NCBI GenBank assembly: GCA_951406725.2 | Contig: OX597833.1 | Span: 27,280,001 to 27,344,000 of the forward strand | Direction of reading: 5' to 3' | Source of the DNA: Octopus vulgaris | Lineage: Eukaryota | Length of the DNA stretch: 64,000 nt | Shown here: positions 10,520-62,170 of the stretch, in pieces | Layout: every line of letters begins with the position of its first letter | Position numbering within the stretch: the stretch's first letter is position 1 | The notes under the pieces: model-generated | The model's input: the letters and a program-made list of their open reading frames with translations, nothing else | The model's database searches: none | What the model was told of the DNA's origin: nothing | Program-made: the position numbers and the translations under genes

Positions 10520-10538
10520 CATTATTATTATTATTATT

Positions 10539-11209
<671 letters not shown>

Positions 11210-45362: not shown

Positions 45363-46194
45363 GGCAGAAAATCGACTACTTTAATCATTGAGCTCGAAAT
45401 GAGAAAAAGCAAAGTTGATCTGTATGGAATTTGAACTCAAGTCAACAGTAGGATTCTACCCGCCACTCCAATAACTATCAGTTTGCTATATTAACCCAAT
45501 ATACTTCTAATTCCACAACAGTATGAACTGCCCTCAGGTCATTGTTTCCTTTACTTCACCATCTTTCCCTAATTTCAAATAACTGGAACAATGACTCATC
45601 AAGCAAATTCAGAAAACAGAAAAAAATACTTTTTACTTGTTATCTTTTAAGTTTCAAGTTGTCTCCTTTGCCTGTGGTTGCTTTAGTCAAACAGATATAG
45701 ACTTGATTAATTTAAGTTACTGAGTTCATTGTGTTAGAGCCTACTAAACTATAAAATATAGCTGTAGCTACATCATTGCAACACAACGAAATGTTTATCC
45801 AGACAACGAAGATGCCTCTTCGGGTTCACTCGACCTGCTACATATAGTTGCCTAATCTTACTCAAATTACACTTCACTGTTTTACACTGCTACGACGCAT
45901 TGGATAATGTGATCCTAGATTCATTACACATCTGACCGTAGAGTAACGCTCTTACTCTACAGACAACATCACAGGTCAAGTGATACGACCTTATTAATCC
46001 AAGTCACGTCACATGCTGATTGAGTGTTTAAGATATTCACCTCATAACAACGTACGGTATTTTGGGTTCAATCTCACTGTGCAGTACAATGGACATGTCT
46101 TTTACCATAACCCTATTTTCTCCAGTATTTCGTCTTGTTTGTGTAATTTGGTTCGTGTATAATCTGTGTGTGGTAGGAGGGTGCGTGTATAATC

Positions 46195-46274
<80 letters not shown>

Positions 46275-46317
46275 CCTGAAACCATAACTATCGCATCTTT
46301 TTATATGTCAGAAACAA

Positions 46318-46384
<67 letters not shown>

Positions 46385-46627
46385 GAGTGAGATAGCAGTG
46401 CATGCCATCAAAGTGACACTGGGGTAAAATATACGAAGCCCAATATACCCATCATGACTACCCGCCTGATAAGGGTACACCAGGCACATGCATCACAACC
46501 ATATGTGCGCGACATGGTGATCTCATATCAAGATAAACAGCACAGGACCTTGCAGGTGGGGCCCAGTTAGAATTTTCTTCAGGTTGAGTAGCCCATCCCG
46601 CTCAAAAGGTCCCTGAATAAGGGTTGT
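46385..46627. mobile_element. Truncated copy of the (TAA)n-inserted repeat
   Basis: Matches 10539-10781 and stops at CCCTGAATAAGGGTTGT. Confidence 0.9.
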
Positions 46628-46992
46628 GACAGTCCCGTATGGGAATTACACCACCGCTGTTTAGCCCTAAGAAGCATCGACGCTTCCTGTCGGCTTTGAC
46701 ACATTTCCTGTGTCCTTATATTTGTGAAGGGGAGGCAAGCACCCCCACCAGCCAAGATTCACACCTGAGGATATGCATTTTTCGAGTCTTAACCCGTCAT
46801 CAGCCCAGGATAGTGAGATCTGCTGACTGAGGTGCCTGTCTAACCTTCACAAATATATATACTTACGGTGAAATCTATTCACTGGTCACCGTAATTAGAA
46901 ATATTAAATTTCTAAATGTCTCAAAGAGACATGAGCGGTGGTGGAGCGATAGAGTGGTTGTATACTGTCAACGTAACGTGACAGTCCCGTAT
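46626..46992 (-). mobile_element. Retrozyme-like unit: 352-bp monomer plus 15-bp terminal redundancy, highly structured, one hammerhead
   Basis: Direct repeat GTGACAGTCCCGTAT at 46626-46640 and 46978-46992. Perfect helices of 14, 10, 9, 8, 7 and 7 bp. HHR at 46764-46809. Confidence 0.75.
46764..46809 (-). ncRNA. Type I hammerhead ribozyme
   Basis: Minus strand reads CCUGGG-CUGAUGA-C-GGGU-UAAG-ACUC-GAAA-AAUGCAUA-UC-CUCAGG: 6-bp stem I, 4-bp stem II, palindromic AUGCAU in stem/loop III, AUC triplet. Predicted cleavage between 46770 and 46769. Confidence 0.8.
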
Positions 46993-47030
46993 TATTTTTA
47001 TTATCATTATTATTATTATTATTATTATTA

Positions 47031-47091
<61 letters not shown>

Positions 47092-47093
<2 letters not shown>

Positions 47094-48472
47094 CTTCTTT
47101 CTTTAAATTTTCTTCCGTTTATCGCTGAGTGTTTTCCGTACACCTAGGGCAGAGAAGCTCATTGTATGCATTCCCAGATTACACGCGCAAATTCACAGAT
47201 AAAATATGTATTTAGAAATTAATAAATAAATAAATTTATGCATGGATGTTGTTTTCACAGCGATAATGCTCTTCTCAGTACATGAGCCATTCCAGTTAAC
47301 ACGATTTCTGGCACTTCCTGTAGGGATGGTAAGCCTGGTATCATTTTCAAATAGGTTTCAGTACCTTTTTTTATCATTCCTAGAGATCCTACAATCACTG
47401 GTACTGTAGTCGCCTTGTGATGCCACATTTTTTCAATTTCTATTAGTAAGTCTTTATATTTACTGATCTTGTCAAATTCTTTCGCCGCTATATTGTGATC
47501 GCAAGGAATATTCATGTCAATTAATAAACACATCCTTTTTGTCTGATCTTTTATAATAATATCTGGTTTATTAGCTTTTATAGTTTTGTCGGTATGTACG
47601 GGAAGTCCCATAGAATCGACACATTCTCTCCCTCAGTCACAGCTTCAGGATGGTGTTTATACCATTTGTCAGCGGTCTCGATTTTATAATGCCGACATAT
47701 TGTCCAGTGTAAATACTGGCCGACTCTGTCATGTCTTGCTTTATATTCTACAGGTGCTAAGACTCTACACCCTGCGATTAGGTGGTCTATTAGCAAGTAT
47801 GTGGCCCGTTGCAAACAAGCTGATGTCGACCAGAAACACAGGCACCAATGGTTACGAAGCTCAGAGCTAAAAGCAGAGAGTGAAGGTTTCATATTAGCTG
47901 CTCATGACCAAAGCTTATTAACCAGGAACTACCAAACCAATGTGATAAAAATGGAGCTGACCCAAAATGCCGATTCTGTAACAATGAGATTGAAACAATA
48001 GACCACCTAATCTCAGGGTGTAGAGTCTTAGCAAGCTTGCGGATTTTTCTGTCAATTTTCATTATTTCACTGGTATTCCAGTTAAGCACATTAAAGCTAT
48101 AAAGAACAACTGGGACTGCTAAAGAATTTATGGCTAACACCTTATTATATGCATTCAGCTCAGACTTCAGGATTGCTCGAACTCTTCTATAACATTCCAT
48201 CCTAACCTTTTCTTTCATGCTTGTATGCTGGATACCAAAGCCTTCATTAATTCCTAGGCATTTATAGGCTTGTTCCTGCTCAAGTTTCGACATCTAATTC
48301 GATTGAACTTGACTTTTCCAATTTCCCTTTCTTAAAAGTGGCTTTGGCACACTTTCCAAAGCCAAACTCCATCCCGATATCATCACTGAATACTTTCACA
48401 GTATGTAAGAGTCCTTCAAGCTCTTCATCATCTTTGCCATATAGTTTTAAGTCATCCATAAAATAGATGGCT
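47092..48472 (-). mobile_element. Rearranged R4/Dong-like LINE 3' part with internal inversion (47792-48033)
   Basis: MDDLKLY and RVRAILKSELNAYNK on minus; LKAESEGFILAAHDQSL on plus; ARHDRVG, KPDIII and KISKYKDL on minus again. Confidence 0.9.
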
Positions 48473-61054: not shown

Positions 61055-61519
61055 ATCTATCCTACATGTGTGTATGTGTACTCGTGCGTGCGTGTGTGCG
61101 TATATGAGTACGTGTGCCTGTGTTTGTGTATGTGTATGAAAGGTCACTTACAAGTGCTACAATTCAATACAATCTGTTGGCATGGTCTTGTCGATGGTGA
61201 CTAACTTGTACTATGTTTACCCGGGGAGGACCTTTACCAGAAATCCAGCAGCACCACAAACAATACTTGTCAAAAAGACGGTTGAATCCAGCATGGGCAA
61301 ACGACTATCTAGTAAATTGCATGATACTCTTATGTAAAATTTAATGGTTTAGCTTCTAATTGTCCCCTTGAATGCTGGGCCACCGAGAGGGAAGCTATTT
61401 ATCAGAAAAGTGAATGTGGTTTTCACTCTCTATAATCCCGCCGCCTAAGGTTACAGACTTGACGACCTGCAGATACGGAATTCTAAACGGTCGTATAGAT
61501 ACCTTGAGACGCTGGGGTA

Positions 61520-62170
61520 CAAGAATACGAAGCCCAACATACCCATCATGACTACCCTTCTGATAAGTGTAGACTAGCCACATGTATCAGAATATGTGCA
61601 TGACATGGTGATCTCATATCAAGATAAACACTGCATAACCTTGCAGCTGAGGCCCAGTTAGAATTTTCTTCAGGTCGTACCGTCCATCCGACTCAAATGG
61701 CCCCTGAATAAGATTTATTTAAGGATGATGAATGAAACATTCATGTTTCCAGATGCGAATTATTCAAACCTCAAAGAATTGGTGTTGTTGAAATTCCAGT
61801 GAAGGAACCTTGGATATAGAGGTTAGAAACCGGATTCTTTATGAGTAAGAAATCTTTAAATAAGACTGAATGATGACATACATACATACATACATACATA
61901 CATACATACATACATACATACATACATACATACATGGCTTTGATGCTCCCCTACTACATCTGCTCGTGATTAGAGATGCACATATTGTCAGCCACTAAGG
62001 ACATGTCCAACTAGTTAATGCCAAGCTACTGTCAGACAAATCTGTGGTATTGAGCAAAATGTTTGCTGTAGCCCATCTTTTATACGAAGACAAAATATAT
62101 ACAGGATAATATTTTCAATCGGTTAAGTTGAGAAACCATGCGAGTCAGTGCCTGGTACTGCATCAGGGCT
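61520..62170. mobile_element. Diverged copy of the (TAA)n-inserted repeat, interrupted at 61779-61934
   Basis: Collinear with 10580-11093 on both sides of the insertion. Confidence 0.85.

Follow-up and report, generated by a model that had tools for sequence, protein, structure and literature searches.

A dispersed 352-nt hammerhead family in Octopus vulgaris, likely copied by Penelope-like elements and likely targeted by ORF1-only retroelements

The stretch of Octopus vulgaris DNA analysed here (64,000 nt, hereafter the window) carries at 46626-46992, on the minus strand, a 367-nt copy of a small structured repeat with a hammerhead motif. The locus raises the question of what such a copy is, by which machinery its kind is pasted into the genome, and whether a ribozyme and a circular RNA have a part in it. 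Here, I propose that it belongs to a dispersed family of 352-nt hammerhead units, likely copied by Penelope-like elements (PLEs), probably from circular or tandem RNA, and that this family is a likely preferred target of ORF1-only Tx1-like retroelements; taken as a whole, this reading is considered probable. Retrozymes themselves being already known, what is new beyond the window copy is a clear set of PLE-type footprints and a site-selective ORF1-only passenger.

The window copy consists of one 352-nt unit plus 15 nt and lacks the normal 3' end of the family. An earlier reading of the window, made from the sequence only, had reported a 15-bp direct repeat spaced by 352 bp, and this was confirmed at 46626-46640 and 46978-46992; the former is the same unit sequence in its next turn, the latter the 5'-truncation point of the copy, joined to (TAA)n. 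An (ATT)n tract at 46990-47092 forms this other flank of the retrozyme copy, and another at 46320-46385 represents the tail or target of a SINE-like repeat (see below). Further elements of that reading, all on the minus strand, are present as well: the 10-bp arms 46649-46658 and 46934-46943, which close a multiloop, the central rod (46717-46752 paired with 46822-46857, capped by the hammerhead), and, both seen in the minus-strand fold, three abutting hairpins (46916-46932, 46895-46915 and 46863-46894) and a hairpin across the monomer junction as it had been drawn (46964-46985). Of twin hairpins proposed at 46678-46692 and 46698-46714, the second is conserved and the first is not, fold and alignment placing the other conserved hairpin in 46663-46695 as AGCC/GGCU around GGAAGC/GCUUCC. 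Hairpin 46863-46894 does occur in the minus fold, yet its long form depends on private changes at 46862 and 46867, and the alignment retains its inner GUGAA/UUCAC part only. A motif scan of the window gave no plus-strand hammerhead core, and Rfam gave neither a match at gathering level in the window nor a hammerhead at E<=1 across 46000-47600. Elsewhere in the window, the same 58-nt sequence occurs in opposite orientations at ~21720 and ~23643, some 1.9 kb apart, and the pair possibly represents the terminal inverted repeats of a DNA transposon.

Folded as a linear molecule, the minus strand reaches -144.9 kcal/mol (z -7.2), a value equalled by 0 of 100 shuffles, and the plus strand has z -7.7. 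In the circular fold, a check named beforehand, the values are -136.3 (z -9.7) for the minus and -126.9 (z -7.7) for the plus strand, and seven divergent relatives tested in the same way also fold well as circles (z -2.3 to -8.4). Covariation among copies, the other check on the fold, was followed in a 24-row alignment (A2), diversity-picked from 48 full-turn BLAST matches and from divergent nhmmer matches; it replaces a 32-row alignment (A1) with misaligned ends and leaves out the close copies L005, L021, L015 and L016, as well as L086, L054, L035 and one L154 arm. Double changes were found in 49 of 112 pairs and the observed values were reached in 0 of 500 shuffles, with the caveat that the counts are inflated by relatedness and that the tested structure is taken from one member, the window copy; paired cells amount to 88.1%, against 83.4% in shuffled and 36-44% in slid controls. 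The double changes comprise 6 of the 10 pairs of the multiloop-closing helix, 27 of the 45 pairs of helices 5-8 in the rod (46717-46857), 4 of 7 across the junction, all 6 pairs of hammerhead stem I and all 3 of stem II, and one pair in each of the three abutting hairpins (46863-46932), where covariation is weak. From the alignment alone, RNAalifold predicts the rod, two hairpins and both stems I and II, with double changes in 29 of 45 pairs. G-U pairs are frequent on the minus strand of the aligned copies, and minus-strand RNA, as had been claimed, is supported.

The type I hammerhead motif lies at 46764-46809 of the minus strand, with a predicted cut site, read from the sequence, at 46770/46769. 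Motif and place were correctly recognised in the sequence-only reading, but the core, described there as CUGAUGA/GAAA/AUC, is not intact, GAAA...AUC being a product of private decay. In all other close copies aligned, CUGAUGA and stem II are followed by GAAAC AUGCAU GUC or a near variant. Compared with the majority of 28 close loci, the window copy differs at 46785, 46779 and 46772 and has a one-base gap near 46783, so that AUC and an A-A mismatch stand where the family has GUC and a palindromic stem III; the free energy of the palindrome duplex is -6.7 kcal/mol as against -14.7 in a family-type copy. The 20-mer of its core occurs a single time genome-wide at up to one mismatch, and the idea of an AUC subfamily was rejected for this uniqueness. 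Given three private core substitutions and a gap, a weak duplex and a unique version, the hammerhead of the window copy is likely dead, having presumably mutated after insertion. Taken alone, the window copy is an unremarkable dead insertion; the structured retrozyme family to which it belongs is real.

Whether the family ribozyme is active is a separate matter. Its stem III is a 10-nt palindrome with a pairing probability of at most 0.07 in 23 of 24 monomers (predicted ensembles); since it is open in monomers and strong as a duplex, dimeric cleavage is predicted, as described for other animal type I hammerheads (PMC4209133; PMC7229834; here and below, statements hold for the available parts of the sources cited). 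Hammerheads paired through stem III would cleave multimeric minus-strand RNA as dimers, and the resulting monomers would be ligated into circles with stem III unpaired. In the family, stem II has C-A or U-A at its base, not the usual G-C, which makes activity uncertain; along with this, 8 of 9 Xenopus retrozyme dimers failed to cleave (10.64898/2026.07.22.740005). In a single case, arm L018, the copy stops exactly at the predicted cut site and so hints at cleavage in vivo. Rfam weakly matches one divergent relative to HH9 (29.1 bits for a cut-off of 52, E 0.001). In several divergent lineages (L098, L100, L110, L115, L116, L154 and L184) the core pair C3-G8 is replaced by U3-A8 (UUGAUAA), a covariant described previously (PMC4209133).

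The family is widespread in the genome (2.8 Gb, 227 contigs searched). A DNA search with the unit returned 121 matches on many contigs from 40 scored of 2258 candidates, the exact hammerhead motif matched 302 times and a 24-mer 620 times, and reversed controls gave 0. Relatives 55-75% alike share the layout and the ~350-nt unit, core and palindromic stem III being retained in lineages only 55-70% alike, and searches with the window copy do not reveal the full extent of the superfamily. It combines a type I core with three helices, a short, non-coding, multicopy unit and a stable self-paired fold, and its copies have no terminal repeats except the next turn of the unit. Metazoan non-LTR retrozymes are likewise non-coding units of 150-450 bp, of 350-390 bp in mussel (PMC7229834). 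The retrozyme-like family suspected from the window copy is real, namely a dispersed hammerhead family within a superfamily of ~350-nt units with a covarying fold, and it appears to work like a non-LTR retrozyme, cleavage and circles being predictions. A viroid or viroid-like replicon does not fit the existence of a genomic DNA family with retrotransposition footprints. As a side observation, L091 (378-6163) holds a 2.9-kb tandem duplication, 99.97% identical, containing an inverted retrozyme and a LINE fragment, which is either a recent duplication or an assembly artefact.

How the units enter the genome can be read from their boundaries. The survey comprises 70 insertions with 106 arms, 29 of them picked by similarity and the rest taken first by position on two contigs, each with ~1.5 kb of flank. 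As many as 92 of the 106 arms end at one of two fixed 3' sites, corresponding to 46949 and 46894 of the window (minus strand) and delimiting a 55-nt tail, whereas 5' ends are scattered. The expectation of copies of more than one turn was borne out, 35 of the 106 arms exceeding unit length and the longest reaching 743 nt, i.e. 2.1 turns. Both orientations occur in 30 of the 70 insertions; all 28 two-armed inversions have their 3' ends outward, and 22 of these pair a short end with a 55-nt-tailed one. Nearly half of the standard 3' ends (49/92) abut microsatellites, (TA)n targets among them, and flanking duplications of 8-18 bp accompany 16 of the 70 insertions, about 5 of these in simple repeats. 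Free circular permutation of the copies, a check that followed from the sequence-only reading, was not borne out, since the 3' ends occupy two fixed sites and true target-site duplications (TSDs) are present; the start of copying being fixed and internal, the picture of free permutation was partly wrong. Head-to-tail arrays, also looked for, do not extend beyond 2.1 turns in the 70 insertions with their ~1.5 kb of flank and partly similarity-based sampling, and few arms have two tandem hammerheads.

PLE insertions are known for partial tandems, for copies that are inverted and 5'-truncated, for a one-end tail and for a (TA)n bias (PMC8557442). The fixed 3' end, the 5' truncation, the inverted arm, the one-end tail and the microsatellite bias of the octopus family all match this footprint, in agreement with the Penelope-like mobiliser considered in the sequence-only reading, and Penelope-like retrotransposons are the likely agents of its insertion, with RNA circles as a possible template. 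In such a scheme, copying would start at a fixed site 173 or 228 nt 3' of the predicted cut site, often at (TA)n, would continue past both the cut site and the unit junction, covering at most 2.1 turns, before ending in 5' truncation or in an inverted second arm, with the 55-nt tail on one end. A young PLE family is indeed abundant in the genome (16,692 candidates), with an RT, a CxxC linker, a GIY-YIG motif and ends at (TA)n. In the one PLE family inspected (30 loci) no terminal homology with the retrozyme was found, though the (TA)n target is common to both; because the terminus of the abundant PLE is not homologous to the retrozyme, I infer the PLE partner from the footprints. Retrozyme relatives lie beside the PLE 3' end at 2 of 29 unselected loci, too few for a link between the abundant PLE and the retrozyme to be drawn. 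Further distant retrozyme relatives are found right at the 3' end of PLE copies in L279 and L285. In 28 of 30 PLE loci (L263-L292), ~700-950 nt past the GIY-YIG motif, a hammerhead-like motif reads CUGUUGA for CUGAUGA; since the A replaced is normally essential for the hammerhead, this PLE family may spread with a dead or unusual ribozyme.

The ends of the window copy itself depart from this pattern, as it is the only one of 106 arms with a 3' end at its position, an exception due to its fusion with a SINE tail. The retrozyme is joined, in the same orientation and at a GT overlap, to the last 242 nt (46386-46627, minus strand) of a SINE-like repeat of ~550 bp, which is set within (TAA)n and recurs elsewhere in near-identical form. 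The boundary given for this host repeat was found as described, the intact copy reading GGGTTGT/TTAAGG at 10775 and having only GT in common with the retrozyme. The repeat is present in the window at 10534-11085, 46386-46627 and 61508-61712, with (TAA)n on both sides, fixed ends and copies 98-100% identical elsewhere; its LINE partner, perhaps of the Dong/R4 type, was not found. As for age, the SINE part is 94-98% identical to other copies and the retrozyme has 11 substitutions in 352. With its like ages and its GT overlap, the fusion is better explained by a template switch and likely arose in one event, in which a reverse transcriptase copying the (TAA)n-targeting SINE would have switched at the GT overlap to retrozyme RNA and copied 367 nt of it. 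The converse order, namely an earlier retrozyme insertion whose 3' end subsequently received a 5'-truncated SINE, a deletion occurring in the process, is a lesser but tenable possibility, for retrozyme 3' ends often adjoin microsatellites and the SINE lies in (TAA)n; yet the junction shows a GT overlap in place of any (TAA)n remnant, and the two parts share one orientation and a like age.

Setting the template switch aside, what was the template of the family at large? A copy of a circle plausibly fits the DNA, and a linear tandem transcript or repeated re-priming would give the same DNA. The parts repeated within one insertion differ at 249 of 4151 sites (6.0%), with only 4 private variants in common; the copies appear to be old, about 3% each, and for this reason the shared-variant test cannot separate a circular from a tandem template. 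The family might then be a non-autonomous mini-PLE, copied from linear read-through of partial tandems or by re-priming, with no circle and with a hammerhead that is incidental or mostly idle. Along this line, the fixed 3' ends are not those made by the ribozyme, and full-turn copies cross the cut site and none goes beyond 2.1 turns. Sequencing runs with the stretch bear four organism labels, and contigs of two of these (A and B) were compared. The unit is covered by contigs of runs presumed to be RNA (four studies), which extend across the cut site, as those of both uncleaved and ligated RNA would, while contig depth cannot rank expression; none of the sequencing runs on record as RNA contains the stretch, and the 352 back-joint occurs in presumed-RNA contigs and equally in a run that is probably DNA, with no pile-up of ends reported. 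Against such a linear element stand the fold, which closes over the whole unit and has covarying helices across the junction, the retention of core and palindromic stem III across lineages 55-70% alike, the arm that ends at the cut site, and the circular form in which retrozymes occur in vivo in mussel (350-390 nt), coral and axolotl (PMC7229834). On balance, a purely linear origin seems unlikely, and a circular or tandem RNA copied by a Penelope-like enzyme is preferred.

The second main trait of the family concerns what is inserted into it. Four loci had in their rod a common 1.66-kb insert, whose 3' end has 204 candidates in the genome; the empty equivalent of the insertion site is 46813-46832 (minus strand) in the window copy, and it is occupied in the close relatives L122 and L125. 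In a census of all 99 exact 21-mer 3' ends, a hammerhead core lies 19-38 nt downstream in 58 and a mutated-core retrozyme in 5 more, so that within 70 nt of 63 of the 99 ends a retrozyme lies in sense orientation (a profile search recovers these 63 too, all in sense), although these are not all independent, L201-L204 being duplicates (95-97% identical with their flanks) and some others re-copied composites. About 10 of the other 36 precede a target piece only, and 26 are unrelated. The element is 1.6-1.8 kb long (1.62-1.66 kb between TSDs) and has a single gag-like ORF of 450-480 aa, i.e. one ORF1-type frame with no ORF2, and an AATAAA tail, as in HAL1-like elements; full-length copies have their own TSDs of 14-19 bp and retrozyme sequence on both sides. 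The ORF contains a zinc knuckle (E 3.5e-4), its Atlas neighbours are CCHC/ZCCHC3-like, and its dN/dS is 0.10-0.21 in the 15 of 28 pairs with dS>0.5, which indicates purifying selection, and 0.14-1.33 in close pairs. A family is termed target-specific when more than 20% of its flanks lie in one repeat (PMC4494074); here 63 of 99 do, at a fixed site and in a fixed orientation.

At least three ORF1 families have the same 3' end and habit. Their targets span 13 retrozyme clusters, with 22 lineage pairs, 46 distinct junctions among the 63 and an identity correlation of 0.19, an incongruence of the two sets of lineages which argues for repeated targeting. For instance, ORF1 tails that are 98% alike occur in retrozymes sharing 62%, and retrozymes sharing more than 90% contain tails that are 61-71% alike. 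Most copies thus likely sit upstream of a hammerhead because they target the retrozyme, a Tx1 endonuclease supplied in trans possibly making the insertions; such an enzyme may recognise either a degenerate sequence near CAGG or some part of the ribozyme. It may be objected that the element has no targeting and that its distribution goes back to a small number of ancient insertions, multiplied as composites through the retrozyme machinery. Composites do exist: in L172 a composite inversion is bounded by the two standard retrozyme ends, and an arm of this kind occurs in L122, from which it follows that composites are sometimes re-copied as a unit by the route of the retrozyme, and the L201-L204 duplicates are alike up to and including their flanks. 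Nevertheless, near-identical tails in distant retrozymes and the converse, the many distinct junctions, a habit common to several ORF1 families, tandem copies parted by one target piece (L104, L109, L182), and off-target copies with TSDs of their own (16-20 bp) all speak against it; amplification as composites alone, already disfavoured as a rival of passenger targeting, is improbable.

Repeated targeting by ORF1-only elements being preferred, some observations concern their relatives. Fragments that include an RT and resemble the ORF1 element at the 3' end form a tandem at one retrozyme site (L159) and are present also in L227 and L228, at a site common with the ORF1-only copy L149; none of the 30 closest relatives of the L159 RT-bearing tail lies directly at this retrozyme, most abutting another SINE-like repeat. 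Both the ORF1 element and these fragments are taken to be Tx1-like on the basis of characteristic motifs and TSD length, not of a tree. A Tx1-like family with about 240 candidate tails occupies one site of an abundant SINE-like repeat (L229-L249), which is probably tRNA-derived, judging from a B-box motif, Rfam giving no match for it in L238. A second hammerhead-like motif with a long stem II (L149:1574-1673, L227, L228, L293) lies 35-55 nt downstream of 3' ends that belong to an ORF1-only copy and to RT-bearing Tx1-like elements; L293 has two such motifs in inverted arrangement. In L163 (403-593, minus strand), 7 nt separate the end of an ORF1-only element from the full-length U2 snRNA sequence that follows it (Rfam 158.5 bits), reflecting either targeting of U2 or a chimeric retrocopy.

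Finally, an origin of the copies as solo terminal repeats (pLTR fragments), left by an undiscovered autonomous PLE, is very improbable, for, even if all insertion footprints are PLE-like and Xenopus retrozymes match PLE termini (10.64898/2026.07.22.740005), copies beyond one unit run head to tail into the same unit (35 of 106 arms), the only common non-unit sequence upstream of the compared copies is the ORF1-only element, and five longer regions had no RT ORF between two units. When a partner PLE was sought there between spaced units, what came up were a segmental duplication, ORF1-element insertions and unrelated repeats; nor do retrozyme copies have the organisation of an autonomous PLE, with an RT and GIY-YIG ORF between pLTRs.

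PLEs have so far been only a strong candidate for the mobiliser of animal retrozymes (PMC7229834). The two fixed priming ends, the asymmetry of the tail and the inversions provide nucleotide-level footprints that make this idea directly testable, since the 352-nt RNA and its start site are defined and a PLE enzyme is available as a candidate. The ORF1-element insertion by the hammerhead adds a target class not found in print, and the re-copied composites with retrozyme ends amount to a ribozyme unit carrying a protein-coding passenger. A bolder extension, put forward tentatively and rather to be doubted than believed, is a three-tier chain of parasites, in which ORF1-only Tx1-like elements would home to the hammerhead of circle-forming retrozymes that themselves ride on Penelope-like elements; the insert would gain a ribozyme-cut 3' end, could travel as a ~2-kb protein-coding circular RNA and would be copied by a second, unrelated machinery. 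If true, such a chain would represent a transposon using a ribozyme replicon as host, and a natural route for a viroid-like non-coding circle to acquire a gene.

As to previous reports, neither a retrozyme of cephalopods nor an element that targets a ribozyme repeat came up in the available literature, though the supplement of PMC7229834, which deals with further invertebrate retrozymes, and repeat databases may hold the family. A word search of the available text of the vertebrate retrozyme work (10.64898/2026.07.22.740005) found no mention of octopus, cephalopod or mollusc, and the words ribozyme and retrozyme are absent from the text and one supplement of an octopus repeat paper.

Compared with known systems, the octopus family resembles the metazoan non-LTR retrozymes (PMC7229834) in its type I hammerhead with a short palindromic helix III, a GC content below 50%, a stable fold and TSDs of more than 4 bp. 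It differs from them in consisting of dispersed partial tandems of at most 2.1 turns with inversions, where dimers to 62-mers are described, in its fixed 3' ends and tail, and in the extra C-A or U-A at the base of stem II; its circles, moreover, are predicted. With vertebrate retrozymes, regarded as PLE derivatives (10.64898/2026.07.22.740005), it shares co-occurrence with PLEs and a presumed PLE mobilisation; the argument there is built on co-occurrence and pLTR homology, whereas here it is built on insertion anatomy, no homologous pLTR having been found. The likeness to the Neptune and Naiad PLEs (PMC8557442, PMC4209133) extends from the partial tandem, the inverted 5'-truncated arm, the one-end tail and the (TA)n bias to the unpaired base before stem II of their hammerhead; unlike these, the octopus unit has no ORF, a tail of 55 nt instead of 30-40, and a hammerhead of canonical instead of minimal size.

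The ORF1 element, in turn, may be set beside target-specific Tx1 elements, such as Tx1 inserting into Tx1D, Tx1-Mar into Mariner-N4 and Keno into U2 (PMC4494074), with which it has in common a fixed orientation, a narrow site in another repeat, a TSD of ~16 bp and tandems around one TSD, and from which it departs by the lack of ORF2 and by strongly divergent targets that are ribozyme-bearing retrozymes. Like HAL1 (half-L1), it is non-autonomous and encodes only ORF1 (PMC5753468); HAL1, however, derives from mammalian L1, whereas the octopus element, judging from its ZCCHC3-like ORF, 3' end and TSD length, looks Tx1-like and is site-selective.
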